Shown: positions 2,948 through 39,329, counted from the first letter of the stretch. The stretch is DNA of 64,000 nucleotides from Candidatus Aenigmatarchaeota archaeon (GCA_043824495.1 JBDRSV010000024.1:91056-155055); one strand, 5' to 3'. Notes: generated from the sequence alone by a model not told the origin. Made by a program: numbers and translations.

Positions 2948-2966
2948 GTTCTCGCCGCGAATCCAA

Positions 2967-3010
2967 ACAGGTATTCAAGAAGAGTCAATTCCTTCTGCCT
3001 GTTTTTAATT
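2967..3010 (+). terminator. intrinsic terminator-like hairpin followed by T-run
   Basis: AAACAGG...CCTGTTTTTAATTT immediately after the lipoprotein stop. Confidence 0.4.
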
Positions 3011-3030
3011 TGTCTAATTAAAGGGATATA
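3008..3030 (-). repeat. junction motif copy 1 (AATTTGTCTAATTAAAGGGATATA; reverse-complement orientation)
   Basis: Matches four other copies at 17660, 20176, 36287 and 56967. Sits exactly at the GC-to-AT composition switch. Confidence 0.85.
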
Positions 3031-3110
3031 GAAAGAAAAAATTAGAAATGTTCAGACATATAAACCTTATAAACTATAATGCTCAATAATTGGTATAATT
3101 CGAAAGGAAA

Positions 3111-3458
3111 ATGACATATATGAAAGCTAAGACAGATATTGGGGTTGGTTTGAAGCCACCTGAGCATAAATGTGAAGAAGAAAACTGTGCATGGCACGGG
3201 AAATTGCCTGTCAGAGGCAGAGTGTTTAGAGGTAGAGTTAGGGCCGCTAAATCTCAGAAAACAGCTATAATCGACTGGGGATTCCATAGATTCGTGCCTA
3301 AATACGAGAGATATGAGAGAAGAAAATCAAGAGTGACTGTTCATAATCCTGGCTGTATGAATGCTAAAGAAGGGGATAATGTTGTAATAGCAGAATGCAG
3401 ACCAATTTCAAAGACAAAGCACTTTGTAATTGTTGGTGTGCAAAAGGAAGGAAAATAA
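3111..3458 (+). CDS. rps17: 30S ribosomal protein S17 (uS17)
   Basis: KTAIIDWGFHRFVPKYERYERRKSRVTVHNP and GDNVVIAECRPISKTKHFVIV are typical archaeal uS17. Confidence 0.8.
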   Translation: MTYMKAKTDIGVGLKPPEHKCEEENCAWHGKLPVRGRVFRGRVRAAKSQKTAIIDWGFHRFVPKYERYERRKSRVTVHNPGCMNAKEGDNVVIAECRPISKTKHFVIVGVQKEGK

Positions 3459-3459
3459 T

Positions 3460-3858
3460 ATGAAAGCGATATCAGCCAATATGACAAGGTGTTTGCCTGT
3501 GGGAGCAAGAATTAATTGTGTAGATAATTCAGGAGCAAAAATAATTAGAATAATTTCTGTAAGAGGATTTAAAGGTATACGAAGAACAATTCCTTCAACT
3601 GGTATTGCTGGTTTATTCCAGTGTAAAGTACTCAAAGGAAATGAGAAAGTTCGACATCTGGTTCATAAAGCTGTTATTGTAAGACAAACAAAAGAATTCA
3701 GAAGAGCAGACGGAACAAGAGTGTCATTCGAAGATAATGCAGCTGTATTAGTGGATGACAAAGGGGATCCAAAGGGTAATAGCATCAAGGGTCCTATTGC
3801 AAGGGAAGTTGTTGAGAGATTCCCAACAATTGGTAAGATTGCAAGCACAGTAGTTTAA
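3460..3858 (+). CDS. rpl14: 50S ribosomal protein L14 (uL14)
   Basis: CVDNSGAK, AVIVRQTKEFRR and FEDNAAVLV motifs. The ATG at 3460 follows the S17 stop. Confidence 0.85.
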   Translation: MKAISANMTRCLPVGARINCVDNSGAKIIRIISVRGFKGIRRTIPSTGIAGLFQCKVLKGNEKVRHLVHKAVIVRQTKEFRRADGTRVSFEDNAAVLVDDKGDPKGNSIKGPIAREVVERFPTIGKIASTVV

Positions 3859-4211
3859 TGGTGACTGACATGACAGATAACATAGATTTCAGTGAATTCC
3901 AAAAAGTTAATATAAGAATAGGAACAATTGAAGCAGCTGAGCCTGTTGAGAACACAGAAAAGCTGTTGAGGCTTCAAATAAGTTTAGGCGAAGAGAAGAG
4001 ACAAATTGTTTCTAGTATAGCAAAGGATTTCACACCTGATCAACTCATTGGTAAGCAAATACCAATACTTACCAACCTGGAGCCAAAAAGTTTCAGAGGA
4101 ATTGAAAGTCAGGGTATGATCTTACTGGTCGTAGAGGAACAAGATGGTTCAGAAAAGCTCACATTAATAACGCCTGAAAATAAAGTTCCTACAGGATCTA
4201 CAGTCAGGTAA
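3858..4211 (+). CDS. tRNA-binding domain protein (Trbp111/EMAP/MetRS C-terminal-like OB fold)
   Basis: VNIRIGTI...EKLLRLQISLGEE...GKQIPILTNLEPKSFRGIESQGMIL pattern. ATG overlaps the L14 stop (TAATG). Confidence 0.55.
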   Translation: MVTDMTDNIDFSEFQKVNIRIGTIEAAEPVENTEKLLRLQISLGEEKRQIVSSIAKDFTPDQLIGKQIPILTNLEPKSFRGIESQGMILLVVEEQDGSEKLTLITPENKVPTGSTVR

Positions 4212-4216
4212 GAGTA

Positions 4217-4561
4217 ATGTCAAAAAAGAGAACAGTTGCAATATTGGTGGGGATATTAATGTTGTTATTGGTATTCCTGGTCGTACTACCGCTATCATTC
4301 GACTCTTCATTGGGAGCTGACTCATTACCTGATTCAGCTTTTTATGAAATTGAATTAGCAGGTGAGAACATAGCATGTGGTATATCACTTGATAGAAAAG
4401 CATGTTTGCTTGAACTTGCTAATGAAAGAGACCAAGAAGTGGAAGAGTTAAATATAAAACAAAGAAGATTATTCGATGAAGATGAAAAGCAACAGTATGA
4501 ATTGCTCATAATTAAAACTGAAAACGCAGCTTCGAGATTAAGAATCGAGGCACTAAAATAG
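4217..4561 (+). CDS. hypothetical membrane-anchored protein
   Basis: N-terminal TM helix VAILVGILMLLLVFLVVLPL and an acidic coiled-coil C-terminus. No recognisable family. Confidence 0.4.
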   Translation: MSKKRTVAILVGILMLLLVFLVVLPLSFDSSLGADSLPDSAFYEIELAGENIACGISLDRKACLLELANERDQEVEELNIKQRRLFDEDEKQQYELLIIKTENAASRLRIEALK

Positions 4562-4569
4562 GAGATCAA

Positions 4570-5094
4570 ATGAAACAGACATGGTCTAAAGACTGGTTGA
4601 GTTCAAAACAACCAAGAAAGCAAAGGAAATATAGAGCTAATGCACCGCTCCATATTAGACGTAAGTTTATTTCTGCACACTTGAGTGAAGATTTGAGAAG
4701 ACAATTCAGTAGAAGAGCATTCCCTCTAAGAAAAGGTGATCAAGTAGAAATTATGAGAGGTAGCTTCAGAGGTAAGAAAGGTCAGGTAACTCGAGTAAAC
4801 TTGTCAAAAAGTAAAGTTTACGTTGAAGGTGTAAACGTGAAAAAAGTGGATGGATCTGAAGTTGCAAGAGGAATCCAACCTTCCAACATTAGAATAATCA
4901 GTCTGAACCTTGACGATAAAAAGAGAAGAATCGCTGTAGACAGAACAAGAGACCAGAAAAAATCTGTAAAAGAAACAGTCAAAGAAGTGAAAACAGAAAA
5001 AGAAACAAAACCGGTAGCTAAACCAGATAAATCAAAAGTTCCAGCGAAAGAAGCTAAAACCACTCCTAAAAAATTAACAAAGGAAGGGAAATGA
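4570..5094 (+). CDS. rpl24: 50S ribosomal protein L24 (uL24) with Lys-rich C-terminal tail
   Basis: SKQPRKQRK...RKGDQVEIMRGSFRGKKGQVTRV is the KOW domain. Confidence 0.8.
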   Translation: MKQTWSKDWLSSKQPRKQRKYRANAPLHIRRKFISAHLSEDLRRQFSRRAFPLRKGDQVEIMRGSFRGKKGQVTRVNLSKSKVYVEGVNVKKVDGSEVARGIQPSNIRIISLNLDDKKRRIAVDRTRDQKKSVKETVKEVKTEKETKPVAKPDKSKVPAKEAKTTPKKLTKEGK

Positions 5095-5135
5095 GTTACT
5101 TTATGCTTAAATAGTTAATAATTAAGAGGTTTGAT

Positions 5136-5846
5136 ATGTCACATTTAAAGAGATACGCGATGCCAAGGAACTGGCCAGTTGAGGTCAAGAAGAAAATTTT
5201 TATAGTTAGACCTATGCCTGGGCCTCATGCTATAAATAGATGCATACCTCTAAAAATTCTGATTAAAGATTCTCTAGACTATGCAGATACATCAAGAGAA
5301 GCAAAGAAAATTATCACATCAGGAAAAGTTAAAGTTGATGGTGTGATAAGAAGAGATGTTAAGTTTCCTGTGGGATTGATGGATGTTATAGAATTGCCTG
5401 ATGCAAAGGAAGCTTATAGAGTTGTTCTCAATAGAAGAGGAATAATATTGAAGAAGATAAAATCTGATTCTGATAAGAAATTATGTTTAATCAAAAACAA
5501 AGTGAGTGTTAAAAAAGGACATTTTCAACTAAATCTTCATGACGGTAGAAATATACTCCTAAAAACAGGAGCTGACGCTTACAAAACAGGCGATTCCATT
5601 GTTATCCAACTTTCTGATAATAAAATACTCAAGCACTACAAACTAGAAAAAGGAGTACCAGCTTTCATATACGCAGGAAAGAATATGGGTGTCTCAGGAA
5701 CAATAAAGGAAATCAAAAAGAAGAAAACAATGGTAGAGAAATCTGTTATTATATTTAAGACTGATGAAAAAGAAATGGAAACCCTTAAGGGTTACGTTTT
5801 CCCAGGTTACTTGGATTTGGGTGAATCTGGAAAGGAGAGTAAATGA
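5136..5846 (+). CDS. rps4e: 30S ribosomal protein S4e (eS4)
   Basis: MSHLKRYAMPRNWPV, KVKVDGVIRRDVKFPVGLMDVIE. Confidence 0.8.
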   Translation: MSHLKRYAMPRNWPVEVKKKIFIVRPMPGPHAINRCIPLKILIKDSLDYADTSREAKKIITSGKVKVDGVIRRDVKFPVGLMDVIELPDAKEAYRVVLNRRGIILKKIKSDSDKKLCLIKNKVSVKKGHFQLNLHDGRNILLKTGADAYKTGDSIVIQLSDNKILKHYKLEKGVPAFIYAGKNMGVSGTIKEIKKKKTMVEKSVIIFKTDEKEMETLKGYVFPGYLDLGESGKESK

Positions 5847-6352
5847 CAGAAAACCCAATGAGACAGATAAGAATAGAGAAGGTCACTGTAAACATGGGAG
5901 CAGGTGAAGCCGGAGCTAAGTTAGATAATTCTGTTAAGCTTATTGAAAAATTAACAGGAGCTAAAATTGTTATTACAAAAACACATAAAAGAACCACATT
6001 CGGTGGACCAAAGAAAAAACCTATTGGAGCCAAAACAACTCTAAGAGGTAAAAAAGCTGAAGAATTCTTAGAGCTAATGTTAAAAGCTGTTGAAAATAAA
6101 TTAAGAAAAAAACAATTTGATGTTAATGGAAATTTCTCTTTTGGTATAAAAGAATACATTGATATACCAGGTGTCAAATACGATCCAGATATTGGAATTA
6201 TGGGAATGGATATCTGTGTAACATTACAAAGACCTGGATATAGAGTTAAGAATAGAAAAATAAATCAAAGAAAGATTGGGATGAAACACAACATTAAAAA
6301 AGAGGACTCCATGGAATTCATGAAAACTAGATTTAAGGTAGAGGTAGTTTAG
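5843..6352 (+). CDS. rpl5: 50S ribosomal protein L5 (uL5)
   Basis: NPMRQIRIEKVTVNMGAGEAG...FSFGIKEYIDIPGVKYDPDIGIMGMDI. Confidence 0.8.
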   Translation: MTENPMRQIRIEKVTVNMGAGEAGAKLDNSVKLIEKLTGAKIVITKTHKRTTFGGPKKKPIGAKTTLRGKKAEEFLELMLKAVENKLRKKQFDVNGNFSFGIKEYIDIPGVKYDPDIGIMGMDICVTLQRPGYRVKNRKINQRKIGMKHNIKKEDSMEFMKTRFKVEVV

Positions 6353-6574
6353 ATGTCATTTTTAAAAGTTAGAAAACAGATAGAGAAAAAACCTATCAAG
6401 GTTGCAAGATATGATAAATTTAACAAACCAAAAAAGAGAAAATTCGGAAAAAATATTCATAGATGCGCAAAATGTAACAGAACAGGCGGGATGATAAATA
6501 AGTACGATTTACATTATTGTAGACAGTGCTTCAGAGAACAAGCAGAAAAATTAGGATTTGTAAAATATAGTTAG
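6353..6574 (+). CDS. rps14: 30S ribosomal protein S14 type Z (uS14, zinc-binding)
   Basis: CAKCNRTGGMINKYDLHYCRQCFRE with four Cys. Confidence 0.75.
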   Translation: MSFLKVRKQIEKKPIKVARYDKFNKPKKRKFGKNIHRCAKCNRTGGMINKYDLHYCRQCFREQAEKLGFVKYS

Positions 6575-6582
6575 GAGTTAAT

Positions 6583-6969
6583 ATGAGACACGATTTAATT
6601 TCAGATGCATTATGCATAATAAAAAACGCAGAATTCATTGGTAAAAAGGAGTGTAAGGTTCCTGTGTCTAAGTTAATTAAAGGTATGTTGACAATCATAA
6701 AAACCAATGAATACATTAAGGATTTCAAGTTAACACATGAAGAGAAAGGAGATTATTTTCATGTTCATCTTGCAGGTAAAATAAATGATTGTAATTCTAT
6801 TAGACCACAATACTCATTCCAAGTAAAAGACGTTGTTAAATGGGAAAAAAGATTCCTTCCAGCAAGAGAGATAGGAATTTTAATTATTACCACATCAAAG
6901 GGCATAATGGATCAAAGACAAGCAGAAAAAGAAAAATCCGGTGGTAGATTACTGGGTTATGTTTACTAG
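6583..6969 (+). CDS. rps8: 30S ribosomal protein S8 (uS8)
   Basis: DLISDALCIIKNAE...IITTSKGIMDQRQAEKEKSGGRLLGYVY. Confidence 0.8.
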   Translation: MRHDLISDALCIIKNAEFIGKKECKVPVSKLIKGMLTIIKTNEYIKDFKLTHEEKGDYFHVHLAGKINDCNSIRPQYSFQVKDVVKWEKRFLPAREIGILIITTSKGIMDQRQAEKEKSGGRLLGYVY

Positions 6970-6977
6970 GTGATTAT

Positions 6978-7241
6978 ATGATAACAAGCAGAGACATTAA
7001 ACATGCAGAAGAGCAAAAAAAATTGTTGATTGGAACAAAAAGTATAGTGAAATCACTAAAAATCGGGGAACTGGAAAGAGTCATTTATGCTTCTAATTGC
7101 CCAGAATCCACATTGAAGGATATAAATTATTATTTAAAATTAACTAAAACTGAAGTGGAATTATTCGATGGAAATTCTTCAAAACTAGGTGAAACCTGCG
7201 GTAAACCCTTTAATATACTTATGATCGCAATAAAGAAGTAG
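6978..7241 (+). CDS. rpl30e: 50S ribosomal protein L30e (eL30)
   Basis: LLIGTKSIVKSLKIGELERVIYASNCPE...KLGETCGKPFNILMIAI. Confidence 0.7.
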   Translation: MITSRDIKHAEEQKKLLIGTKSIVKSLKIGELERVIYASNCPESTLKDINYYLKLTKTEVELFDGNSSKLGETCGKPFNILMIAIKK

Positions 7242-7247
7242 ATAAAT

Positions 7248-7652
7248 ATGCCAATAAAACTAGAAACAATGACAATTAGAACTATTGCAACATTTGAAAA
7301 CGTAACGAACGTTCATGCGGTGGATTGCATAATTGCAGACGATTACATGTGTTTTCTTGTTGATCCTGAAAAAGTTGGCTTAGCAATTGGCAAAAACGGA
7401 TCAACAATAAAACAATTAAGAAAAATGTTTAATAAACAAATAAAAGTGTTCGGTTACTACAGAGATCCAGAATCTCTTGTAAAGGGGGTAATACCCGAAG
7501 TAATTGAAATAGAACAAAATAGTGGAGCTTTGGTAGCTACTCTCCCAAGCGGAGAAAAATTATCTATAATAGAGAAAAACAACAAGAATATTAAGATACT
7601 AAAGGAAATATTAAAGAGACATTTTTCCATCAAGACATTAAAACTCAGATAA
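7248..7652 (+). CDS. nusA: archaeal NusA-like KH-domain transcription termination factor
   Basis: KH GxxG motif VGLAIGKNGSTIKQLRKMF. Size and L30e-NusA-S12-S7 context are typical of archaea. Confidence 0.6.
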   Translation: MPIKLETMTIRTIATFENVTNVHAVDCIIADDYMCFLVDPEKVGLAIGKNGSTIKQLRKMFNKQIKVFGYYRDPESLVKGVIPEVIEIEQNSGALVATLPSGEKLSIIEKNNKNIKILKEILKRHFSIKTLKLR

Positions 7653-7657
7653 GATAT

Positions 7658-8287
7658 ATGATTCAAATGAAAATTAAGATAATAAAAAAATCTGGAAATG
7701 ACCTTGAATTCACAGCTGAAAACATCAGTATACCTTTAGCAAATGCACTTAGAAGGATAATGATTTCTGAAGTGCCAACATTATCAGTTGACTGGATTGA
7801 TATTCATAATAATACATCTGTTTTGTTTGATGAGATGATATCTCACAGAATTGGTTTAATTCCAATAAAATTCAACCCTGATAAATTTAACTTTATAGAT
7901 GATTGTAAATGTGAAGGCAAAGGATGTACATTGTGTCAAGCAGTGTTCTCAGTGACCAAGAAAGGTCCATGTATTGTTTATTCGGGGGACATGAAACCTG
8001 CAAACAAAGAAGCAATTTTCACAGATCCTAAATTCCCTATAGTTGAACTTCTAGAAAATCAAGAAATCAAACTAGATGCTATTGCAAGACTTGGAATAGG
8101 ACAAAATCACTCAAAGAATCAAGCAGCTATAGCAGCATATGAATATGATGGTGACGGAAAAGCATTGAAATTTAAATTTAAGATAGAGTCTGTATCAGGT
8201 TTGAAACCTGATTACATTGTTGAAAAAGCAGCACATATATTAGAATTAAAAGCAGCGGAATTTAAGAAGGAAGTCAATAAGATATGA
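7658..8287 (+). CDS. rpoD: DNA-directed RNA polymerase subunit D (Rpo3)
   Basis: ANALRRIMISEVPT signature and a CKCEGKGCTLC four-Cys cluster. Confidence 0.8.
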   Translation: MIQMKIKIIKKSGNDLEFTAENISIPLANALRRIMISEVPTLSVDWIDIHNNTSVLFDEMISHRIGLIPIKFNPDKFNFIDDCKCEGKGCTLCQAVFSVTKKGPCIVYSGDMKPANKEAIFTDPKFPIVELLENQEIKLDAIARLGIGQNHSKNQAAIAAYEYDGDGKALKFKFKIESVSGLKPDYIVEKAAHILELKAAEFKKEVNKI

Positions 8288-8496
8288 GCGCTCAATTGGT
8301 TGTATCCTGGATCCTTGGTAGCATATTCATGCTAGGAGGGGTATGGATAATAACAAACCTCGAGATGAATCTTGGGGTGACCGAGTCCTCTTATATTGTC
8401 GCTCTTATTATAGCATTTATCATGTTCCTTCTAGCTGGTTTCCTATGGATTTCGGTTGCCGTGGGTACAGAAAAACAGCCGCATCACCACCATTAA
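8284..8496 (+). CDS. small hypothetical membrane protein
   Basis: Two TM helices. ATGA overlap with the rpoD stop. Ends QPHHHH. Confidence 0.4.
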   Translation: MSAQLVVSWILGSIFMLGGVWIITNLEMNLGVTESSYIVALIIAFIMFLLAGFLWISVAVGTEKQPHHHH

Positions 8497-8606
8497 TTCC
8501 GAAATGAGCTATTCCTGCATTTATAAATATTTATATCAATAAGAACCAATATACTCACAAAATCTATATAAATCCTTGAGCTGAATAAGCTCATACAAGT
8601 GATATC

Positions 8607-9029
8607 ATGGGACAATTTGGAGCACGAGAATTAAAGAAAAAGAGGAAAAAGTTTAGATGGAAATCTACAAAACACAAGAGACATCAGCTAAAATTATGGA
8701 AGAAATCACCTCTTAGAGGAGCTCCTATCGGAAAAGGTATAGTTCTTAAGAAGAAGGGTATTGAACAAAAACAGCCACATTCTGGTATTATTAAAGCTGT
8801 CAGAGTACAGATAGTTAAAAACGGTATTAATGTTACAGCATTTGTACCAAAAACAGGTGCAATCAAGCATATAGACGAGCATGACGAAGTAACAATAGAA
8901 GGAATGGGCGGATCTCAGGGTGGAGCTGTCGGTTCTATGCACGGTATCAAGTTTAAGGTTTTCAAGGTGAATAATATTTCTTTGAAAGAAATTCTAAAGG
9001 GGAAAAAACAGAAGTCTAAGGGCGGTTAA
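8607..9029 (+). CDS. rps12: 30S ribosomal protein S12 (uS12)
   Basis: [36 protein letters not shown]...VTAFVP...[11 protein letters not shown]. Confidence 0.85.
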
Positions 9030-9031
9030 TT

Positions 9032-9622: not shown

Positions 9623-9708
9623 TTTTAATGTGCTATTTTTAGTGTCAGTAATTTCGTATAACAGGTAGCTCACACTACTTTTTTCTAAAAATAAAAGAAA
9701 TTGGGTAT

Positions 9709-10134: not shown

Positions 10135-10242
10135 ACTAATCTCCTTAATATTATGTATACTATTACATATTGTTATTTAAATGCATATTATGCTCTCATT
10201 TACGAATATTTCTTCATATATTTATATTTCCGTACACAAATC

Positions 10243-11007: not shown

Positions 11008-11070
11008 GTAAAGATCTTTTTATAGTAAAATGACATATATAGAAGTACTTCGATCGAATGATCTTAGAAT

Positions 11071-11234
11071 AGCCCCGTAGTGTAGTGGTCAAAGTTTGAC
11101 AACCTGTGTGCTCGCATGTAGTTGTCTACACGACTAGGCATATCGGGCCTTGGTTTTCGCAACTAAGGATCTGAGCGAGAAATCGCTGTGAAAGAGGATA
11201 CCCGGTGACTGCGGTTCGAATCCGCACGGGGCTA
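11071..11234 (+). tRNA. intron-containing tRNA, probably tRNA-Gln(UUG), with two putative introns (D-loop region and anticodon loop)
   Basis: 7-bp acceptor AGCCCCG/CGGGGCT with A1-U72 and discriminator A. D-loop AGUGG. T-arm TGCGG-TTCGAAT-CCGCA. Anticodon stem TCGGG/CCCGG with loop CCTTGG...A. Total 164 nt implies about 90 nt of intron. Confidence 0.55.
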
Positions 11235-11266
11235 TCATTTTTATTGTATACTTACAATTATTTCTT

Positions 11267-12952
11267 ATGTATCCACTAGAAAAGTTCAGAGACGATATTA
11301 AATCAGTGATAGCTGAATACAAAAAGATAAAGAAAGATGAAGTTGTTTTAGCAAAACCTCCTCAAGGTATTCCAGCAGATTTAGCCTATCCATGTTTTGG
11401 CTTGGCTAAAAGAGAAAAAAGAGATCCAGTAGAATTTGCTCTCACAACAGTGGAGAAAATAAAACCTAGAGGATTGATATCCAGAATAGAAGCTAATGGT
11501 CCATACATAAACTTCTATGCAGACTGGAGTAAGATGGGAAGCTTAGTTTTGAATGGAATAATAAAAGAAAAAAACGCTTATGGTAAAGGAAAGAAAAAGA
11601 ATAAGATTCTAGTGGAACACACTTCAGCCAATCCAGATGGTCCTTTACATCTAGGTCATTTCAGAAACACTGTTATAGGAGACTCTTTAGCAAGAATATT
11701 ACGATTCTATGGTCATGAAGTAAAAACAGATTTCTATGTAAATGATACAGGAAGACAAATAACTCTAGCTTCTTGGATGTATTTACAAAATGAGCCTAAA
11801 CCTAAAGGTAAGCTAGATTGGTGGGTTTATGACTTGTATTTCAAATGTAACCAGAAATTGAAAACCAATCCAAGTATAGAAAATGAAATAACAGATATGA
11901 TGCTTAAGTTTGAAAATGGAGATAAAGAACTAAGAAAAACACATGAGTTCATAGTTGATCAATGCTTGAAGGGGCATAAAGAAACTCTAGAAAGCATTGG
12001 AATTAAAATCGATAGATTCTCAAAGGAAAGCGAATTCCTATTCACTGGAAAAGTTGATGATGTTTTGAAGAAGATACTCAAAACAAAGGAAGGAAAATCG
12101 TCTGGTAAAAGAGTATGGGTTGACTTGAAACAATTCAAAATAGAAAGAGAATTCACTCTAACAAGATCTGATGGAACAACAATTTATCCAGCAAGAGATT
12201 TGGCATATCATGCAGACAAGTTTGAAAGAGCAGATCAAAACATAAATATTATAGGAACAGATCAGAAATTTTACTTCAAGCAGTTAACATCAACTCTTGG
12301 TTTACTATTTCCAAAGAAAACAGAGAATTATCATGTTTTGTTTTATGAGTTTTTGCTGTTGCCAGAAGGAACAATGTCTACACGTTTAGGTAAATTTATT
12401 TCAGTTGATGAACTTGTAAAGAAATTTACAGAAACTGCAAGAAAAAGTATAGAAATAAAAAATCCAAAATACTCAACTAAATTCAAGGATGATATAGCTA
12501 AGATGGTTGGTATAGGTGCATTGAAGTATGCAATGATAAAAGTTTCGCCTGAGAAAACATATTCTTTCAGTGTGGATGACAGCCTAAATTTCGAAGGTAA
12601 CACGGCACCTTATATTCAATATACTCATGCAAGAGCTTCTTCGATACTTCAGAAAGCTGGTAGTAGCAAACATGTAATCAAGTATATAGGAGAAGAAGAG
12701 AAACAAGTCATGAACAAGTTAATGGAATTCCCATATGCAGTGAAAAGAGCTTCTAAAGAATATAGACCACACATAATAGCTAACTATGCATATGATCTAG
12801 CAACGTCTTTCAATAACTTCTATCACTCGGTTCCTGTACTGAAAGCAGAAAAAGACTTAATAGGAACAAGACTAGCTATAGTAAAAGCTGCTCAGATAGT
12901 TTTGAAAACAAGTCTAGATCTTCTAGGTATAGAAGCACCTGATAAGATGTAG
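11267..12952 (+). CDS. argS: arginine--tRNA ligase
   Basis: HTSANPDGPLHLGHFRNTVIGD (HIGH region), GTMSTRLGKFISVDEL, DALK-type anticodon-binding C-terminus. Confidence 0.9.
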   Translation: MYPLEKFRDDIKSVIAEYKKIKKDEVVLAKPPQGIPADLAYPCFGLAKREKRDPVEFALTTVEKIKPRGLISRIEANGPYINFYADWSKMGSLVLNGIIKEKNAYGKGKKKNKILVEHTSANPDGPLHLGHFRNTVIGDSLARILRFYGHEVKTDFYVNDTGRQITLASWMYLQNEPKPKGKLDWWVYDLYFKCNQKLKTNPSIENEITDMMLKFENGDKELRKTHEFIVDQCLKGHKETLESIGIKIDRFSKESEFLFTGKVDDVLKKILKTKEGKSSGKRVWVDLKQFKIEREFTLTRSDGTTIYPARDLAYHADKFERADQNINIIGTDQKFYFKQLTSTLGLLFPKKTENYHVLFYEFLLLPEGTMSTRLGKFISVDELVKKFTETARKSIEIKNPKYSTKFKDDIAKMVGIGALKYAMIKVSPEKTYSFSVDDSLNFEGNTAPYIQYTHARASSILQKAGSSKHVIKYIGEEEKQVMNKLMEFPYAVKRASKEYRPHIIANYAYDLATSFNNFYHSVPVLKAEKDLIGTRLAIVKAAQIVLKTSLDLLGIEAPDKM

Positions 12953-13083
12953 AGTGATTAAACGGTAAGCATAATCAAGCTAATAGCACTTATTATAATT
13001 ATTTATTTAGTAGTTTCTATTTTCCAATGTTACTGGCCTGCGAGTATGCTTGAAGAAGTCTTATGTATTTATGGTCCACTATT

Positions 13084-13614
13084 CTAGACACTATTCCACA
13101 ATCTCTGAATTAGTTGATTCATTGTAATCTTTTTCTGGAACAGTTCTTTTACATCATTCTTTTCAATCTGCACTCTTATCTGTGCCTTATTCTCTAAATC
13201 ATTCTTATAAGATTCAACTCTTGCAACTAACTCTGGTTTTATCGCTTCATTTTCAGCTTCTACTGCAAATTTTCTTACAAAAGAAGCATCCATAGCTAAA
13301 AGATCATTTGCAATTCGTTCTCTGTAAAGAGACTTAACCATTTTTGTTATTGTAGCTGCTTTTTCTACAGTAGCTGAATCAGATGCTTTCTGTACCACAA
13401 AAGCTTCTACACTCCCTGCACTAACAGGAACAGCTTCTTCTATACCTAAAGTATCTCTGTAAATACTCTCTTTCTGTGCAGATGTTGTAGCTTGATGTTT
13501 TATTACATCAGATGATCTTATGTCTACTAGAGCAAATCTTCCAGAAGCTTGTACAAGAGACATTGATAAAACTAACAAAATTCCAATTATCATCAAAGTT
13601 AATTTATAGTTCAT
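13084..13614 (-). CDS. secreted hypothetical protein
   Basis: Signal peptide MNYKLTLMIIGILLVLSMSLVQA. 11-nt overlap with the upstream gene. Confidence 0.45.
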   Translation of the reverse strand: MNYKLTLMIIGILLVLSMSLVQASGRFALVDIRSSDVIKHQATTSAQKESIYRDTLGIEEAVPVSAGSVEAFVVQKASDSATVEKAATITKMVKSLYRERIANDLLAMDASFVRKFAVEAENEAIKPELVARVESYKNDLENKAQIRVQIEKNDVKELFQKKITMNQLIQRLWNSV

Positions 13615-14410
13615 TGAACCACTCCGTTAATTTTATTGAGTGTGCTGGATATGTTTTATCCACCACCAATATTTTTTTCTTCTCTAAATTCTTAAGCGCC
13701 GCTGCAAGACTAGATTTTGATATTCCCGATTTCTTTTCCAGTTCACTTCTCCTGATAACTCCTTTATTTTCTACGACTATATTTACAATCTTCTTTTCAT
13801 TCACTGATAATGTTTTTATGACCGATTCCTTTTTGGATAACCCTGGTTTCATTTTGTGTATGATTAATCCAATTCCAATGATTATGATAATACCAATAGC
13901 TGCAAACACGAATATAATTGGGTCGGTAGTCTTTGGTAGTTCCTTTTCAAATGAATATGATATTTCAATTGAGTTTATTCCTGCCCACCGAAGTTCTGTT
14001 ATATCTCCAGTTTGTATGTAAGCTGAAGGATTTGATGAAATTATTTTTGTGTTGTCAGGCATCAAAATAACAATGTTGTTATTTTGTAATCCTGTATCCA
14101 TATTGAATTTCCAGTTACCGTCTGTTTTTGATGTGAGTAGAGATGTTGTGTACAAAACAACAGCTTCTCTAGTTTCTCCAATTGACACTTCTATATAATC
14201 ATCATGCACTAGATGCAACCCGCCTCTTACTAGTACCTCATCCACATCTGCTGGGATTGGTAGACGATAAATACCTGATCCTGTTATTGTTATGCTTACT
14301 AATGTGTTTCCATTATCTTCTATGATTATGTAATATTCGGTTGCTTCTTGCGCATACACTGTCGGTATCAGCGCGAGCAATCCTATCATGATCAGCAATA
14401 CAACTTTCAT
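13604..14410 (-). CDS. membrane-anchored winged-helix transcriptional regulator with extracellular domain
   Basis: Signal peptide, about 160 aa ectodomain, TM segment FVFAAIGIIIIIGIGLII, then C-terminal wHTH (VNEKKIVNIVVENKGVIRRSELEKKSGISKSSLAAALKNLEKKKILV). Confidence 0.55.
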   Translation of the reverse strand: MKVVLLIMIGLLALIPTVYAQEATEYYIIIEDNGNTLVSITITGSGIYRLPIPADVDEVLVRGGLHLVHDDYIEVSIGETREAVVLYTTSLLTSKTDGNWKFNMDTGLQNNNIVILMPDNTKIISSNPSAYIQTGDITELRWAGINSIEISYSFEKELPKTTDPIIFVFAAIGIIIIIGIGLIIHKMKPGLSKKESVIKTLSVNEKKIVNIVVENKGVIRRSELEKKSGISKSSLAAALKNLEKKKILVVDKTYPAHSIKLTEWFNEL

Positions 14411-14475
14411 ACATGAAAGTTAATTTTTGCCTACTTAAATATGACCTGGGGGAAGGGTTCCCCAGGTATATAATT

Positions 14476-15171
14476 TTACCAGTAAAGACCTGGTCCGAAT
14501 GGGCCGATTGGTACTTCTATTGGTTTATTTGGTTTAGGTTGTGGTGTGTTCCACTCTTCAGGGAACCCTGGTCCTATACCACAGTCCCCGCATACTGCTA
14601 TTCGTGGGAATACTTTGTATTCACCGTATGAATAGTCTCCGTAGATATCCATGGCTTTCCAGTGATTTCCACTGTACCAACCAAAGAAGAGCTCATCTTC
14701 ATAGAAGCCAGCGAATTTGTGGTTCTCATAAATTCCCCATACTTTGACTCCATTATTATCTTCACCAACAAAATATCCATTTGCGTATGTTCCCCATATA
14801 ACATTTTCTCCGTCATGTGTCCATAGAATAAATCTATGTGGTCCTGTGTAGTAGGGCATTGTTTCTCCTGTTGTATCAGAAGATCCTGTACTTGGAGCTT
14901 CCATTTTGTCTACTGTAGCTTCGTAACTTGAAGGTATAGAAGCTGTAGCTTCTGTTTTAAACTCTTCTAGCTTATCTGCTACATTCGTTTTCACGATTTC
15001 TATATGCTCTGTGTTCACGCTGTTAGCGAATCCAAATCCCCTCTTCATATCATTCAGTTTCTGAATAAGAGGTTCATAATCCTCGCTTGAAACAGCTTGT
15101 GTTGAGGCAATTCCTAGTGCCAATACTGACACGAAAACAATTGCCATAATATATTTGGTGTCCATTTTCAC
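14476..15171 (-). CDS. secreted hypothetical protein (Trp/Tyr/Gly-rich)
   Basis: Signal peptide MAIVFVSVLALGIASTQA. Aromatic-rich repeats GWYSGNHW, GDYSYGEYK. Confidence 0.45.
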   Translation of the reverse strand: MKMDTKYIMAIVFVSVLALGIASTQAVSSEDYEPLIQKLNDMKRGFGFANSVNTEHIEIVKTNVADKLEEFKTEATASIPSSYEATVDKMEAPSTGSSDTTGETMPYYTGPHRFILWTHDGENVIWGTYANGYFVGEDNNGVKVWGIYENHKFAGFYEDELFFGWYSGNHWKAMDIYGDYSYGEYKVFPRIAVCGDCGIGPGFPEEWNTPQPKPNKPIEVPIGPFGPGLYW

Positions 15172-15315
15172 ACCCCCTTGACATCACCAAGGAATGAACA
15201 GGATATAAAGACCATACCGAACAAAAGTGAACAATCATGTTATATCCCTCTAATTAGACAATATAAAACAATCAGGTGCCGAGTGCACACCTAATTGTCC
15301 TTGCCAATCCTCTTC

Positions 15316-16422
15316 TCATCTCAGCTTCAAAAACGCTATATGAGGTGCAGGCAGCCACTTGACTAACGATTCAGTCCAAGAGAAAGACCATTTCAGCTTC
15401 TTCTTCATCTCGTGAACCTTCATACATTTCACCGAGACTAGATTCCAGTTCAGGATGCCGAAAGCTGTGCCCAAGAGACCACCGACAAGCATAACGAAGC
15501 CCTGTCCTACAAGATCCATTCCGGCGGAGGAAACGAGAAATTTGTAAGCGAGAAATCCGCCCAAGACTCCGTCAACTGCACACAACACTCTCTGGAAACA
15601 GTGAACCATCTTGATGATGTTCCAGATAAACTGACCGATAAATGTGAGGACCACCGAGATGCACACCAAGACAACGAAAATGACGGTCAGTGCAGTGAGA
15701 ATTGGGTACCAGACAGAAAGTAGAAGCAAACTGAAGAGAATGTATCCCATCGCGTTGAGATACCCGAGTTTTATTTCTCGGCGGTTCTTCTCCTCAAGGA
15801 AATACCTCCTTCTTAACACACCGATGTCGTATTTTTGGTCCGTGTGTCTGCTTATTCCGAGAGCCTCCCCAATACTCTTATAGTTGTACAAAACGTCTTC
15901 CCCGCTAGCGTCTTTCTTATCGACCATCATGAAAGGATAGAAGAACCTTCCGCGATCACGACTTCCAACAAAAGCGAGGAAAGAAAGAACGCCGGAAAAG
16001 ATCACAACACAGGCACCAGAGAGCGCCAACAGAAGAATGCTGCTGAGAGCGAGTTGAAGGATGTTCAGTGTTTCAGCATCTGCGAAAAGACCGGAAAATA
16101 TGTGATGTGCTGGCCACAAGCCGAGCACAAGACTCGGAAAAAGGAACGGGTGTGGCTTCGAGCATAACCAGTCCTTGGCTTTTCCGTAGTTGTCTCTGAT
16201 ATAAAACGGCCAAGTTCCGATATCATCCAACATCTCTCCGAGCATCACTTGGATCGCTTTGGCCACCTCACGGAGGTCGTAACCAAAATAACCAGCTGCT
16301 CCGCCGGCCAGGAAAGCAGCAACCCACATGTACAACTTGTCCGGCATCAGCCACATGGCAGTTGCACAGAACACGATGCCTCCAATGAAGCATCCGATTC
16401 CGATCTTCATCCAATCTTTCAT
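15316..16422 (-). CDS. polytopic membrane protein (hypothetical)
   Basis: At least 8 predicted TM helices. Intermediate GC zone (about 48%). Confidence 0.5.
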   Translation of the reverse strand: MKDWMKIGIGCFIGGIVFCATAMWLMPDKLYMWVAAFLAGGAAGYFGYDLREVAKAIQVMLGEMLDDIGTWPFYIRDNYGKAKDWLCSKPHPFLFPSLVLGLWPAHHIFSGLFADAETLNILQLALSSILLLALSGACVVIFSGVLSFLAFVGSRDRGRFFYPFMMVDKKDASGEDVLYNYKSIGEALGISRHTDQKYDIGVLRRRYFLEEKNRREIKLGYLNAMGYILFSLLLLSVWYPILTALTVIFVVLVCISVVLTFIGQFIWNIIKMVHCFQRVLCAVDGVLGGFLAYKFLVSSAGMDLVGQGFVMLVGGLLGTAFGILNWNLVSVKCMKVHEMKKKLKWSFSWTESLVKWLPAPHIAFLKLR

Positions 16423-16489
16423 GGCGAAAATCTCCTTCTCGTTGTATTTCTTTGTTTATAGTTATCGTCCTAGAATTAATTCAAAACAA

Positions 16490-17041
16490 TCATATCTGCA
16501 AAGGTTCAAGCAGATACATCAGACTTCGGTCTCGTAATTCTGTCCTCTTATAAGGAGGGAGATCTATGAGACAAAGACTGGAAATACTCACGTGCATGGT
16601 TTGATACTTGGTTTCGTCTGCTTGGTACATTCCCGTAAAGATTATATTATTCAGGACAAACCCGGAAACTACTGTCCAGATCCAGAATGCCATCCATCCA
16701 TCGTACAAGAAGACGCTGGCAATCGCTGAAATGATTGCACCCACTGCGAGAACACCTACCTCAAAGAGAAGCATCGTAAAGATATCTCCCACGGGGTCGT
16801 TTTTGTCCTCTTCCCACCAATCCTCCATGACGAGTTCGTGGATAATCATGTCAATGAGATTCTGCCTGTTCTGCATTTTCTCGTGGTAGGCTATGAAACG
16901 AGTTGGTTGACGAATGTTGTGCCAGATGATCAATCCAATTGGCACCCAGATGACTGCTGTAGTGACAAGCAGCCAGAGAACTACTCTAGTTTCCATGTCC
17001 CCTCCAGGATTGATTGTTAGAAAAAATACTAGTATAATCAC
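16490..17041 (-). CDS. membrane protein (hypothetical); probable true start at Met 16996
   Basis: METRVVLWLLVTTAVIWVPIGLIIW TM helices; same strand as 15316..16422. Confidence 0.45.
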   Translation of the reverse strand: MIILVFFLTINPGGDMETRVVLWLLVTTAVIWVPIGLIIWHNIRQPTRFIAYHEKMQNRQNLIDMIIHELVMEDWWEEDKNDPVGDIFTMLLFEVGVLAVGAIISAIASVFLYDGWMAFWIWTVVSGFVLNNIIFTGMYQADETKYQTMHVSISSLCLIDLPPYKRTELRDRSLMYLLEPLQI

Positions 17042-17249
17042 TCTCGTTAATTGACATTTCTGTCTTTCGTTGTCGTAGAGTATTGATTCCTAAATTACAG
17101 ATGATGACTTTACCTCGAACAAGAATCTTGTGCCAGGTGCTAAAAGTTGTCAGCGATGATAAATGTGGAACATGATGCATAGAATTTAACCTAAAATTTT
17201 ATAAACCTATACAAAACCTTTTTATACCTCTTAATTGACAATATATAGT

Positions 17250-17639
17250 ATGAAGAAAAAAGCAAAGAGGACCACAAAGAAAACAGTGAAAAAACCAGTC
17301 AAGAAAATAAAAATAGAAAAGAGAGTAACACCAAAACCAAAAAAAGAAGAGAAAATTAAATGTCCTTATTGTAAGAGTTCTAGAGTGGTTTGGAGAGGAT
17401 ATAGATACAACGAAAAGACTGACAAGCACTTAAGATTATGTAACAACTGTAAGAGAAAGTTCACAAAAAGAGACGAGTTCTTCCGTATGAGATTCGGTGA
17501 AGAAGAGATAAAAAGAGCTGTGGAATTATACAAGAAAGGTTATTCTTCTGCAGAAGTAGTTCAGAACCTGAAAAGAAATCATGGAATAAAGGTTTCAAGA
17601 TGGACTGTGATCTGTTGGCATAAGAGATACACTAAGTAA
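17250..17639 (+). mobile_element. IS1-family InsA-like Zn-ribbon/HTH protein, solo with no InsB
   Basis: CPYCKSSRVVWRGYRYNEKTDKHLRLCNNCKRKFT mirrors the InsA CPSC...YLCSHCRKTW pattern. C-terminal HTH GYSSAEVVQNLKRNHGIKVSRWTV. TTTATA box about 26 nt upstream of ATG 17250. The track start TTG 17235 is less likely. Confidence 0.45.
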
Positions 17640-17659
17640 TTATTTTTTTTATCAGTTAT

Positions 17660-17681
17660 TATATCCCTTTAAATGGACAAT
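17660..17681 (+). repeat. junction motif copy 2 (TATATCCCTTTAAATGGACAAT)
   Basis: Exact AT-to-GC switch. Followed by hairpin GGAGAGGTGCAG...CTGCACACTCTCC, the terminator of minus-strand gene 17755..19629. Confidence 0.85.
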
Positions 17682-20197: not shown

Positions 20198-20199
20198 AA

Positions 20200-39324: not shown

Positions 39325-39329
39325 ATATC

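Follow-up and report, generated by a model that had tools for sequence, protein, structure and literature searches.

Within the window (the whole 64-kb stretch of DNA that was analysed), each of the six strong copies of a 22-base motif marks the point at which a GC-rich, imported unit meets native DNA; none of them represents the terminus of a giant transposon. Comparison with full-length elements shows the 22-mer to correspond, by its sequence, to the inner, conserved portion of a terminal inverted repeat of the IS6 family, and in Aenigmatarchaeota this end survives as short solo or paired motif copies. We are fairly confident of the identity of the motif and of its marking of junctions. The complete explanation, that the copies are relics of IS6-derived ends, probably bound by a domesticated protein, that mark the joins of foreign units to the chromosome, has in our judgement an even chance of being right, and the mechanism that we propose for the joining is more tentative still.

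Results

The seven copies in the window, six strong and one degenerate (Table 1), are real and non-random: The 22-mer with up to three mismatches occurs 5 times, against 0.00 expected from shuffled sequence, and its 13-mer core 6 times against 0.15 expected. A weight-matrix scan placed the strong sites at 34.6–40.6 bits and the seventh at 19.4 bits, the best block-shuffled score being 15.7. All four copies quoted in the original prediction (copies 1, 3, 5 and 6) are present at the positions it gave, and those at the edges of its two AT-rich blocks are indeed inverted; however, the notion that inverted pairs bracket these blocks overlooks three further copies (at 15241, 17221 and 20175). Four copies in direct orientation lie between 15241 and 20201.

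Table 1. Motif copies, hairpins, GC-rich units and the InsA-like gene in the window.
Feature	Position	Strand	Description
Motif copy 1	3009..3030	+	TTTGTCTAATTAAAGGGATATA; 40.6 bits; tip to unit A on left, inner side to S17 ribosomal-protein cluster
Degenerate partner arm of copy 1	~3052-3066		TCAGACATATAAAC; read directly from sequence
Motif copy 2	15241..15262	-	38.0 bits; tip to unit B, inner side to native gene 14476-15171
Degenerate copy	17221..17247	-	19.4 bits; immediately 5' of InsA-like start codon
Motif copy 3	17660..17681	-	36.5 bits; 20 nt past InsA-like stop; tip to unit C
Motif copy 4	20175..20201	-	ATGTCTATTTAAAGGGATAAA; 34.6 bits; tip to unit D
Motif copy 5	36287..36308	+	36.4 bits; tip to unit E, inner side to AT-rich accessory/defence island
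Motif copy 6	56967..56988	-	40.6 bits; tip to unit F, inner side to VanZ-like and YchF-like native genes
Terminator-like hairpin + T-run, end of A	2965..3004	+	dG -14.9, z -1.9; directly before copy 1
Terminator-like hairpin + T-run, end of B	15266..15300	-	z -3.3
Terminator-like hairpin + T-run, end of C	17687..17723	-	dG -27.5, z -5.6
Long hairpin + T-run, motif-proximal end of D	20207..20259	-	z -2.8
Terminator-like hairpin + T-run, end of E	36247..36283	+	z -3.7
Terminator-like hairpin + T-run, end of F	56992..57032	-	z -4.2
Unit A, GC-rich foreign	1..3008	+	M20 peptidase gene end, M32 carboxypeptidase, 163-aa orphan
Unit B, GC-rich foreign	15263..~17100	-	membrane orphan genes 15316-16422 and 16490-17041; 5' edge approximate
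Unit C, GC-rich foreign	17682..~19700	-	624-aa protein; 5' edge approximate
Unit D, GC-rich	20202..~23800	- (predicted)	3.6 kb non-coding; more structured than shuffled sequence
Unit E, GC-rich foreign	~27050..36286	+	nine co-oriented ORFs; 5' edge approximate
Unit F, GC-rich foreign	56989..~59100	-	three orphan ORFs, 57064-59030; 5' edge approximate
InsA-like gene	17250..17639	+	Zn-ribbon + HTH; position after ArgRS conserved in relatives

At every strong copy (6/6), the ATTGTC tip faces GC-rich DNA and the GATATA inner side faces native DNA. The changeover occurs no more than 100 nt from the motif and is as sharp as had been claimed, GC per 100-nt bin being 0.44–0.60 on the ATTGTC side vs. 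0.23–0.47 on the GATATA side. All 18 GC-rich ORFs are oriented towards their own motif, with 53–75 nt between the last stop codon and the motif, and the units end in a constant order of terminator hairpin, T-run and motif: A stable hairpin adjoining a T-run precedes 6/6 strong copies (z from -1.9 to -5.6). The ‘inverted pairs’ arise because the foreign units flanking a native stretch are transcribed towards it. No motif is present at the other GC-rich edges: ~17100, ~23800, ~27050, ~59100 and, in contig L002, the upstream boundary of the first block.

GC-rich blocks occupy ~34% of the window (at least six units, ~22 kb of 64 kb), and GC3 is bimodal, at 0.19–0.35 in native and 0.49–0.70 in foreign ORFs. 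The blocks consist of complete transcription units whose bacterial-like or orphan genes all point the same way, and they differ among themselves in tetranucleotide usage. Unit A begins ~0.85 kb upstream of the window, adjoining an AT-rich methyltransferase gene, and sits between the Rpp29 and S17 genes, the ribosomal-protein cluster resuming on its far side; the nearest named relatives of its M32 peptidase are Zixibacteria proteins (72% identity), and a 74% relative was found in an ordinary bacterial genome context. The 624-aa protein of unit C combines FlgD_ig with a type IX secretion C-terminal sorting domain. Unit E, with a TATA-like box at ~26956, encodes eight orphans and an FHA-domain protein (35974–36222), and a 663-aa protein, the only foreign orphan for which homologues were sought, returned none. 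Across its 3.6 kb, unit D lacks any ORF, shows no codon periodicity and matches nothing in Rfam; a TATA-like box near 23826–23838, together with its motif-proximal hairpin, suggests the strand on which it is read.

The AT-rich blocks belong to the native chromosome of a DPANN archaeon (Aenigmatarchaeota), into which the GC-rich blocks have been inserted. The AT-rich blocks hold core genes in the order of relative L019 (ribosomal proteins, RpoD, ArgRS, riboflavin and inositol genes), and the run from ribosomal proteins through ArgRS, InsA and DUF87 to Ino1 synthase is collinear with that relative, which lacks the GC-rich units of the window, unit B included. This arrangement overturns the original suggestion that the AT-rich blocks are themselves the inserted units, i.e., that 3008–17681 and 36287–56988 are giant transposons, or rearranged units, with ATTGTC-tipped terminal inverted repeats. 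Although the block-edge copies form inverted pairs whose tips point outward, and the motif does derive from a transposon end, the core genes inside the blocks keep their L019 order, and the ribosomal-protein cluster, which unit A splits at Rpp29/S17, continues beyond the GC-rich block. Nor is the first block uniformly AT-rich, as had been described: It holds the two-gene unit B (15263–~17100) with an extra motif copy of its own at 15241. Target-site duplications, proposed as a check, are absent outside both motif pairs, where the longest shared word is 2–4 nt. Giant transposons are ruled out by the synteny with L019, and we give this reading almost no chance.

Another conceivable origin of the contig is a chimera produced by assembly or binning, in which archaeal and bacterial (or GC-rich archaeal) contigs were joined at a short repeat. 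The extreme two-state composition (33% vs. ~50% GC), the bacterial-type genes in the GC-rich blocks and the occurrence of the motif in GC-rich and AT-rich archaeal genomes alike are consistent with such an artefact; moreover, every assembly seen derives from run SRR26275509, and the independent assembly has one break, at 17094–17112. We nevertheless consider a chimera very improbable. Over the compared lengths of 12.9 kb and 12.5 kb, two Logan contigs of this run match the window with 100% identity, and they cross the six strong motif junctions, as well as the four motif-less GC/AT edges that they cover, in an assembly whose de Bruijn word we take to be 31 nt. At 27 nt or less, the motif copies are shorter than this word, and they differ from one another by 1–3 bases, so they cannot be collapsed repeats. 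None of the GC-rich blocks is a random genome fragment, each being a set of complete, co-oriented units that ends at a terminator; the blocks are heterogeneous in tetranucleotide usage, and MAGs and contigs obtained from other samples, in other studies, show this architecture too. With all six strong junctions reproduced in a second assembly, the assembly mosaic raised in the original prediction is unlikely; its variant, in which recombination joined two genomes at a common sequence, comes close to the reading we favour, except that the GC-rich parts are heterogeneous and do not represent one second genome.

Sequence comparison identifies the InsA-like protein as the N-terminal DNA-binding module of an IS6-family transposase without the DDE domain. 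It matches both the IS1/IS1595 Zn domain (IS1_IS1595_Zn at E 0.0022, a hit that falls short of the curated cut-off) and the N-terminus of IS6 transposases, and a search with a 12-homologue profile recovered proteins of ~280–315 aa that share this N-terminus and have DDE_Tnp_IS240 in addition. The ends of one full IS6-like element were set from three copies with different flanks, and in each of these three contigs the best two matches to the motif matrix are exactly the two termini of the element, inverted and in the same register; its right end (IRR) is identical to the motif at 14/18 positions. Motif copy 3 occupies the position of an IS6 right end, and the InsA-like ORF does end 20 bp short of it, as originally noted. 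The motif lacks the G-rich tip of IS6 ends, which reads GG in the consensus of the family and GACA in the full copies recovered here; this lack makes canonical IS6 cleavage at these copies doubtful. Inside the 64-kb window there is no DDE transposase with matching ends, the sole DDE gene (44028–45038) being of the IS4/IS5 type; the InsA-like gene has no InsB frame downstream, and no 8-bp target duplications occur at the motif copies in the window.

In all cases examined (the window and relatives L003, L011, L019–21, L022–23, L024–27 and L028), the motif lies within ~70 bp of the InsA-like gene. Inverted copies bracket the gene in L024 and L028, with ATTGTC tips outward, like a mini-IS; this bracketing and the register match to IS6 ends bear out the earlier view that the motif is derived from terminal inverted repeats and linked to the gene. 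The degenerate copy upstream of the start codon, possibly the promoter or operator of the InsA-like gene, has counterparts in L022 and L024. The gene is syntenic and conserved across genera, and such conserved synteny of a remnant is the behaviour of a host gene. Exact motif scans matched four archaeal MAGs and four metagenome contigs (37–62% GC), most of which repeat the order gene, hairpin, T-run, motif. Four contigs with an identical InsA protein are one sequence where compared (L024 equals L025 base-for-base, and L026/L027 share their motif contexts), and no presence/absence polymorphism of a unit was found at any motif among the contigs compared.

In L011, ArgRS and InsA are followed by six direct motif copies that space ~1-kb units containing ORFs, tRNAs or non-coding DNA. 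A tandem array of this kind, with same-orientation sites and ORFs running either way, would be expected if recombination at the motif served a new cassette system resembling integrons, with the InsA-motif locus as its platform. Circular units, each with one site made up of a variable hairpin and a conserved core, would then be inserted at the resident site by a dedicated site-specific recombinase encoded elsewhere. Also in keeping with such a system, the ArgRS-InsA-motif platform is constant and its content varies among the window, L019, L011 and L022; the cargo consists mostly of orphan, secreted or membrane proteins; contigs L006, L010 and L023 terminate ~30–130 nt from a motif; and integrons have been reported in Aenigmatarchaeota (PMC9668308). 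We view this explanation as unlikely: R''/R' pairs (RYYYAAC...GTTRRRY) are absent from the window and from L011, the 64-kb window encodes no tyrosine or serine recombinase and no integrase, and what is conserved is an unbroken 27-mer with homology to an IS6 end rather than a site defined by its structure. In addition, most units of the window are multi-gene (2–9 kb), with promoter-like 5' regions of their own and a site at one end only.

A purely regulatory motif, serving as operator, insulator or roadblock-terminator of the Zn-ribbon/HTH protein and possibly as promoter, is an alternative that we hold to be possible, if doubtful. Its MITE-like copies would have spread behind strong hairpin terminators without any role in acquiring foreign units, and GC-rich units would carry the motif only because such hairpins belong to them. 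Several features accord with regulation: the TATA-like core TAWTTAAA inside the motif; a reversed copy ~26 nt before the InsA start in L022, as for a leaderless promoter; a motif-to-T-run spacing fixed at 4 nt in most of 24 instances; back-to-back MITE-like pairs in L004 and L024 and the degenerate partner arm in the window; strong conservation over genomes of 33–65% GC; and the want of a cleavable IS6 tip. However, regulation alone leaves unexplained why composition switches within 100 nt of the motif at 6/6 sites, and why, in four genomes, it is on the tip side of the conserved InsA site that the variable DNA lies. A promoter role fails at three copies of the window whose inner side does not look onto the start of a downstream gene: Two are turned towards a convergent gene at its 3' end (17639, 56951), and the third towards the promoter-proximal end of unit C; in L011, the distance from the motif to the next TATA box is variable (9–37 nt).

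Discussion

To account for relics of IS6 ends at the joins of foreign units, we propose that the remnant Zn-ribbon/HTH protein would bind the motif, much as IS26 Tnp26 and IS1 InsA bind their own ends, DNA binding being a prediction from family knowledge. Purifying selection for this predicted binding would keep the copies near-identical across genomes of such different base composition. Foreign units may have been joined at the motif through IS6-style recombination, either by cointegration or by end-targeted insertion, a process that would set passenger DNA against the IS tip and build direct-repeat arrays; alternatively, short-homology recombination could have taken place at the shared 27-bp sequence. 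We infer such joining with some hesitation. The persisting copies would be those adjoining a terminator, where a protein-bound site may insulate native genes from read-through. A simple cointegrate would leave relics at both edges of a passenger, with some tips towards native DNA, whereas 6/6 tips point to foreign DNA and no relic lies at the 5' edges; the association of motif and unit could result in part from later MITE-like insertion behind strong hairpin terminators.

Among known systems, IS6/IS26 offers several parallels. The Zn-ribbon and HTH of the InsA-like protein are those at the N-terminus of full DDE_Tnp_IS240 transposases, passenger DNA lies against the tip, and the motif, in register with the ends of the full relative, retains TGT...AA, the core of the signature cTGTt...caaa described for IS6 ends (PMC7986276). 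Direct-repeat arrays between passenger segments likewise resemble those of IS26 (PMC7986276). Unlike IS6/IS26, the system has no DDE domain, G-rich tip or 8-bp duplication; the ‘IS’ between passengers is cut down to a ~27-bp site at one passenger edge only, each passenger comprises entire transcription units and stops at a terminator, and the remnant gene has been kept, in the same gene neighbourhood, from genus to genus.

As in attC/CALIN arrays, including those of archaeal integrons (PMC9668308), sites of one orientation follow the 3' ends of short units, most of them orphan, and form tandem arrays next to a conserved platform, with cargo of cross-domain origin. In contrast to integrons, R''/R' boxes and IntI are missing, it is sequence and not structure that defines the site, which derives from an IS end, and many units are multi-gene with their own promoter-like regions. 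In one-ended mobilisation of the ISEcp1/IS1380 or IS91/ISCR type, a passenger abuts one IS end and its far edge has no recognisable repeat. The passengers of the window appear analogous in adjoining one IS end, with a repeat-less far edge, but the IS family is another, no intact transposase is adjacent, and the passenger genes run towards the end instead of away from it.

InsA of IS1 binds the terminal repeats and represses transcription. The protein described here is similarly a small Zn-finger and HTH protein at the start of a transposase gene. The label is apt for the Zn-ribbon, whereas the HTH part and the longer relatives are of the IS6 type (transpos_IS6, PF13610) and not of IS1. REP/BIME sequences are intergenic repeats derived from transposon ends and situated by hairpins, and they are accompanied by RAYT, a single-copy, domesticated derivative of an IS200/IS605 transposase. 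The motif differs from these in that its parent is an IS6 DDE element rather than an HUH element, its protein has no catalytic domain at all, its copy number is low, and its copies stand at compositional junctions with foreign DNA; by analogy, the two systems would share a short, conserved, end-derived repeat at the 3' ends of transcription units, by hairpins, together with a single-copy domesticated transposase derivative.

Results

Native backbone and foreign units

The composition of the window is two-state: GC3 ranges from 0.19 to 0.35 in the native ORFs and from 0.49 to 0.70 in a second set, and the AT-rich DNA codes for core functions such as archaeal ribosomal proteins, RpoD and ArgRS. 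In L019, a related genome (ENA) whose proteins are 60–74% identical to those of the window, the backbone order is identical, running from ribosomal proteins through ArgRS, the InsA-like gene, a motif copy, an ORF-free gap, a DUF87 ATPase, a 182-aa protein and a short variable stretch to Ino1 synthase and PadR; the window's GC-rich units are absent from it. The upstream extension of the window (L002) places unit A between the Rpp29 and S17 genes, beside an AT-rich methyltransferase gene. This synteny, together with the location of unit A inside a ribosomal-protein cluster, therefore identifies the GC-rich blocks as insertions and the AT-rich blocks as the chromosome. The original prediction had raised the inverse, i.e., that the AT-rich blocks are the inserted units, in effect giant transposons; this is refuted, in that the bounded segments are core genome syntenic with L019 and no target-site duplications lie outside either motif pair (the longest word common to the flanks is 2–4 nt).

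The GC-rich DNA amounts to about a third of the window (~22 kb of 64 kb) and forms six units. Unit A encodes M20 and M32 peptidases, the latter 72% identical to Zixibacteria proteins and 74% identical to the product of a gene in ordinary bacterial surroundings. Elsewhere, the GC-rich DNA encodes an FHA-domain protein and many orphans without a Pfam match, one of which has zero homologues among 5.8 billion proteins. The blocks are not rRNA operons or other known RNAs, since the window contains no Rfam match at the gathering threshold and no tRNAs. Block-by-block tetranucleotide analysis, which had been proposed as a check, found the GC-rich blocks heterogeneous among themselves: their profiles correlate poorly (r 0.01–0.40, at the low power afforded by short segments), which argues against one bacterial donor genome.

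Type IX secretion is a feature of Bacteroidota-group bacteria and, to our knowledge, has no archaeal version, so the sorting domain encoded in unit C probably came from bacteria recently and is carried along without a function. In unit E, intergenic modules are repeated at 29328–29378 and 30239–30289, and further repeat pairs occur at 28206–28235/32723–32752 and 31971–31998/32607–32634; one module is a GGGGATCCC...GGGATCCCC hairpin followed by CAACYTGACAATWAAC immediately ahead of the next start codon, and ribosome-binding-site regions are also repeated. These regulatory repeats are internal to the foreign unit and have no counterpart in the native DNA.

Features of the window, with positions in nucleotides
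Feature	Position	Strand	Remarks
GC-rich units	A 1–3008; B 15263–~17100; C 17682–~19700; D 20202–~23800; E ~27050–36286; F 56989–~59100		
Strong motif sites	3009, 15241, 17660, 20175, 36287, 56967	+, -, -, -, +, -	34.6–40.6 bits each
Degenerate motif site	17221	-	19.4 bits
InsA-like gene	17250–17639	+	
T9SS-tail gene	17755–19629	-	FlgD_ig, SdrD_B and a C-terminal sorting domain for type IX secretion (Por_Secre_tail/CHU_C)
TATA-like box	~23826–23838		At one end of unit D; long hairpin, T-run and motif at the other end
DUF87 ATPase and 182-aa coiled-coil protein	23950–26515	-	ATPase HerA/FtsK-type, 680 aa, winged-helix-like C-terminus
AT-rich accessory island (defence/mobile)	36936–45038		Just inside the 36287 motif copy
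Myo-inositol-1-phosphate (Ino1) synthase gene	47035–49560	-	Intein of ~460 aa with LAGLIDADG homing-endonuclease domain

A recurrent motif at the 3' ends of foreign units

Scanned with a weight matrix derived from 24 motif instances across several genomes, the window has exactly seven motif sites, six strong and one degenerate, against a best score of at most 15.7 bits in block-shuffled sequence. Chance is ruled out by the counts of the 22-mer with up to three mismatches (5 vs. 0.00 in shuffles) and of its 13-mer core (6 vs. 0.15). The copies have at most ~27 nt in common and differ from one another by 1–3 bases; the 27-mer includes the segments TGTC and GGGATATA. All four copies quoted in the original prediction are present where it placed them; its picture of two bracketed AT-rich blocks does not hold, as it overlooked three further copies, and the first block is not a single AT-rich unit, in that it encloses another motif copy and a GC-rich unit.

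The organization around the strong copies is uniform. All 18 GC-rich ORFs are oriented towards the motif of their own unit, the last stop codon lies 53–75 nt from it, and the interval holds a stable hairpin abutting a T-run at each of the six strong copies (z −1.9 to −5.6). GC content falls within 100 nt beyond the motif, whose ATTGTC side (the tip) always faces the foreign unit and whose GATATA side faces native DNA. No motif, even when degenerate copies are included, occurs at the 5' edges of the units, and a common 5' leader that might serve as a second end was discarded: only short words are common (GGCACAAGAT and GTCTTTCGTGT, with CACAAACTCT within the SMTZ contig, L011), which is too little. 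The inverted pairs are a by-product of this polarity, because units flanking a native stretch are transcribed towards that stretch.

Exact scans recovered the motif from four archaeal MAGs and four metagenome contigs of other studies, most of which have the order gene, hairpin, T-run, motif; the gene on the inner side is often convergent. Matches in a Methylophilaceae sequence (L005) and in IMG/VR (L012) were attributed to chance, as neither is accompanied by a hairpin and T-run; a rough hand estimate, rather than a computation, puts the chance matches expected in the genome scan at about two. An adapter or vector origin is contradicted by the differences among copies and by the occurrence of the motif in unrelated public assemblies, and a sigma-70 promoter by the wrong spacing. 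Our literature search returned no published description of the motif.

Integrity of the junctions

Data on this genome come from one sequencing run, SRR26275509. Two contigs from Logan, an independent assembly of that run, agree with the window at 100% identity across compared lengths of 12,947 and 12,536 nt, and together they cross six of six strong motif junctions and four motif-less GC/AT edges. The sole uncrossed GC/AT edge is the 5' edge of unit B, where the two contigs abut (17094–17112), ~110 nt from the degenerate motif copy; this break could reflect strain heterogeneity in the array. Given that the copies have at most ~27 nt in common, with 1–3 base differences, and that the Logan de Bruijn assembly uses a word that we take to be 31 nt, the motif copies would not have been collapsed. 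The original prediction had also entertained an assembly mosaic of two genomes; the junctions, identical base for base in the independent contigs, speak against it. A chimera is unlikely on other grounds as well: the sequence common to the junctions is at most 27 nt and mismatched, the GC-rich blocks are complete transcription units rather than random fragments and are mutually heterogeneous in tetranucleotides (in short segments), and a like architecture is found in MAGs and contigs of other studies.

IS6 ancestry of the motif and the InsA-like gene

The InsA-like ORF has matches to the Zn-binding domain of IS1/IS1595 and to residues 1–50 of the IS6 transposase model; its product consists of a Zn-ribbon and HTH only, with no DDE domain (DDE_Tnp_IS240), although PF13610 is present in full-length relatives elsewhere. 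A profile of 12 close homologues retrieved ~1,170 cluster representatives, many of them stand-alone proteins of 90–130 aa. Another set of 280–315 aa has the same N-terminus followed by DDE_Tnp_IS240, and these are therefore IS6-family transposases.

From three copies with different flanks, we defined the ends of a full IS6-like element as GACACTGTTAAGTTAACGATACAT (IRL) and GACATTGTTCAATTAAAGCGAG (IRR). When the motif matrix was run on the three full-element contigs, the two best matches on either strand were exactly IRL and IRR, inverted and in a single register, with the IS tip 4–5 nt outside TTGT; IRR and the motif are identical at 14 of 18 positions. The published signature of IS6 ends is a G-dinucleotide tip with internal cTGTt and caaa motifs (PMC7986276). 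Its TGT...AA core is kept in the motif and the G tip is not, the tip positions being T/A-rich and unconserved. In the window, the InsA-like gene is followed after 20 nt by a motif with its tip outward, which is the transposase-then-right-end layout of the full element. Two comparison sequences (L024 and L028) have a mini-IS-like arrangement, with the small InsA-like gene between inverted motif copies, tips outward, and MITE-like pairs of inverted copies, placed back to back, are separated by 14 nt in L004 and by 49 nt in L024. The window's MITE features are confined to a degenerate partner arm at 3052–3066, with no target duplications seen. The motif is a relic of an IS6 end, tied to a DDE-less transposase fragment and situated at the 3' junction of foreign units.

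Every genome examined has a motif copy within ~70 bp of an InsA-like gene. The position of this gene after ArgRS is kept in three genera (the order is common to the window, L019 and L011), and the order InsA-like gene, gap, DUF87 is common to the window, L019 and the relative L022. An alignment of 12 sequences of the protein has 38 invariant columns. With its transposase-module homology, single copy, cross-genus synteny and constraint, the InsA-like gene behaves as a domesticated host gene; a literature search recovered no publication treating the family as a domesticated IS6 fragment. The transposase Tnp26 is reported to bind its own terminal repeats by its N-terminal domain (PMC8477213), and from this analogy and the co-location in all genomes examined we infer that the InsA-like protein would bind the motif.

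Two neighboring features of comparison sequences deserve record. In L029, the full IS6-like element whose ends were compared with the motif adjoins genes for a ParE toxin and a DUF7557 protein (1987–2441). In L003, an uncultured archaeon MAG, an InsA-like gene and two motif copies are found at a distance of 3 kb from a group II intron domain (4288–4449; RF02012, 63 bits).

Arrays and a variable site

On the SMTZ contig (51% GC), six motif copies in the same orientation come after ArgRS and the InsA-like gene at a spacing of 0.75–1.15 kb, with units that contain ORFs of either orientation, tRNA genes or non-coding DNA. The array units with tRNA genes (3679–3836 and ~5512–5680, minus strand) carry a tRNA-Val and a second tRNA with an odd anticodon call; an apparent intron-containing tRNA has its 3' end and T-run abutting a motif copy, and a 39-nt leader (TCACCATCATATTCACAAACTCT...) is common to several units. 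The window has four direct copies within 15241–20201. The direct arrays repeat the 27-bp relic, not an IS, and in three of the window units just one edge bears a copy.

The arrays and the orphan cargo also fit an integron-like recombination site, and integrons have been reported in Aenigmatarchaeota (PMC9668308). We regard this reading as quite improbable: pairs of R'' (RYYYAAC) and R' (GTTRRRY) boxes 50–160 nt apart number zero in the window and zero in the SMTZ contig, which eliminates a canonical attC; the window has no Rfam match; and the ORFs scanned, from 64 kb of a 172-kb contig, include no IntI or other integrase domain.

At the InsA-proximal site, the tip-side DNA differs among the window, L019, L022 and L011, and the inner-side gene is conserved. 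The proteins flanking site 36287 and the L019 site at 17671 are unrelated in an orthology comparison. No presence/absence polymorphism of a unit at the motif was found among comparison sequences L024–L027: L024 and L025 are identical base for base over their common 2,736 nt, the motif contexts of L026 and L027 are the same, and apparent strain differences were differences in gene calling.

In a rival reading, the motif is a domesticated element with a regulatory role alone, and its copies spread as MITEs to positions behind terminator hairpins. Its TATA-like core and the fixed spacing of the T-run are in keeping with such a role, which would leave unexplained both the coincidence with the switch in composition and the variability on the tip side; we consider it a tentative and rather unlikely account.

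The ORF-free unit D and the accessory genes

Unit D (3.6 kb, ~48–50% GC) has no ORF longer than 125 aa. Recoded or pseudogenised genes were rejected for 20200–23790, as all three kinds of stop codon occur in all frames and codon periodicity (amplitude 0.099) equals the shuffled value. The region 19600–24000 has no Rfam match even at E ≤ 1, and unit D has no plasmid or phage match; its folding energy is ~2 sd below that of shuffles on both strands. Unit D may be a very large RNA or non-coding cargo. ORF-free gaps of 2.1–2.3 kb occupy the corresponding position in L019 (10320–12614) and L022 (10700–12830), and likewise in the related sequences L020 and L021, bounded by the InsA-like gene and its motif on one side and by the DUF87 ATPase on the other. 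Apart from the motif, the window, L019 and L022 gaps have nothing in common, which speaks against a conserved large RNA at this site. They match no plasmid or phage. The position of the gap is conserved; its sequence is not.

The DUF87 ATPase has a weak NCBIfam match, far under the cut-off, to 'DNA-translocating ATPase CedD', and it and the 182-aa protein adjoin the InsA-motif locus in three genera, so that a role of the pair in handling DNA there is conceivable. The accessory island encodes a Cas4-like PD-(D/E)XK nuclease of intermediate GC3 (0.48), a PDC-M19A-like protein, a type IIG restriction-modification enzyme (908 aa), a ParB-like PDC-M38A protein and an IS4/IS5-type DDE transposase (GC3 0.44). 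The Ino1 orthologue in L019 (360 aa) has no intein.

Discussion

Foreign transcription units that have hardly ameliorated make up about one third of this chromosomal segment, each ending at a 27-bp sequence that can be traced to an IS6-type end and is tied to a conserved DDE-less fragment. A possible explanation proceeds in three steps. The transposase fragment would bind the motif, by analogy with IS1 InsA and with Tnp26 (PMC8477213); such binding would account for the near-identity of the motif across genomes of 33–65% GC. Units might then be joined to the chromosome at motif ends by IS6-style cointegration or end-targeted insertion, setting passengers against the IS tip and forming direct-repeat arrays, or alternatively by short-homology recombination at the common 27-mer. 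Finally, copies abutting terminators could persist because the bound site also insulates neighboring genes. Against this mechanism, the motif has no tip, there is no target duplication, no catalytic partner is in view, and the comparison sequences gave no presence/absence polymorphism; and against a plain cointegrate model, relics occur at one edge only, with every tip towards the foreign DNA.

In its most ambitious form, the explanation is that Aenigmatarchaeota may run a dedicated gene-capture platform made of a domesticated IS6 fragment and end-derived 'landing pads', in which the Zn-ribbon/HTH protein would bring motif copies into synapsis and a catalytic partner, encoded at another locus or brought in by a mobile IS6 copy, would insert whole foreign transcription units at a resident tip, including bacterial operons with their own intrinsic terminators. 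We offer this as speculation and think it improbable. If true, the platform would function as an independently evolved analogue of integrons for moving DNA across domains, and would account for a DPANN symbiont in which bacterial-type or orphan genes make up one third of this region.

DPANN archaea contain many bacterial genes. Should the link be causal, the motif offers a concrete, testable route of cross-domain gene import into ultra-small archaea, and a second case, after REP/RAYT, of a host recruiting both a transposon end and a transposase fragment. If it is regulatory only, a phylum without genetics still gains a cis-element present throughout the lineage, together with a plausible trans-factor. 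In practice, the motif marks junctions that binning and chimera filters might be inclined to cut. A literature search found no publication on GC-rich junction-marked islands in Aenigmatarchaeota, and a cross-domain mosaic with a traceable junction element is both surprising and testable.

Intact IS6/IS26 elements carry DDE_Tnp_IS240 between their ends and generate an 8-bp target duplication, whereas the window protein lacks this domain and the longest words common to the flanks of the window junctions are 2–4 nt. In its overall organization, the system resembles three known kinds: IS6 relics and arrays, domesticated transposases with repeats of the REP/RAYT type, and cassette-like arrays.
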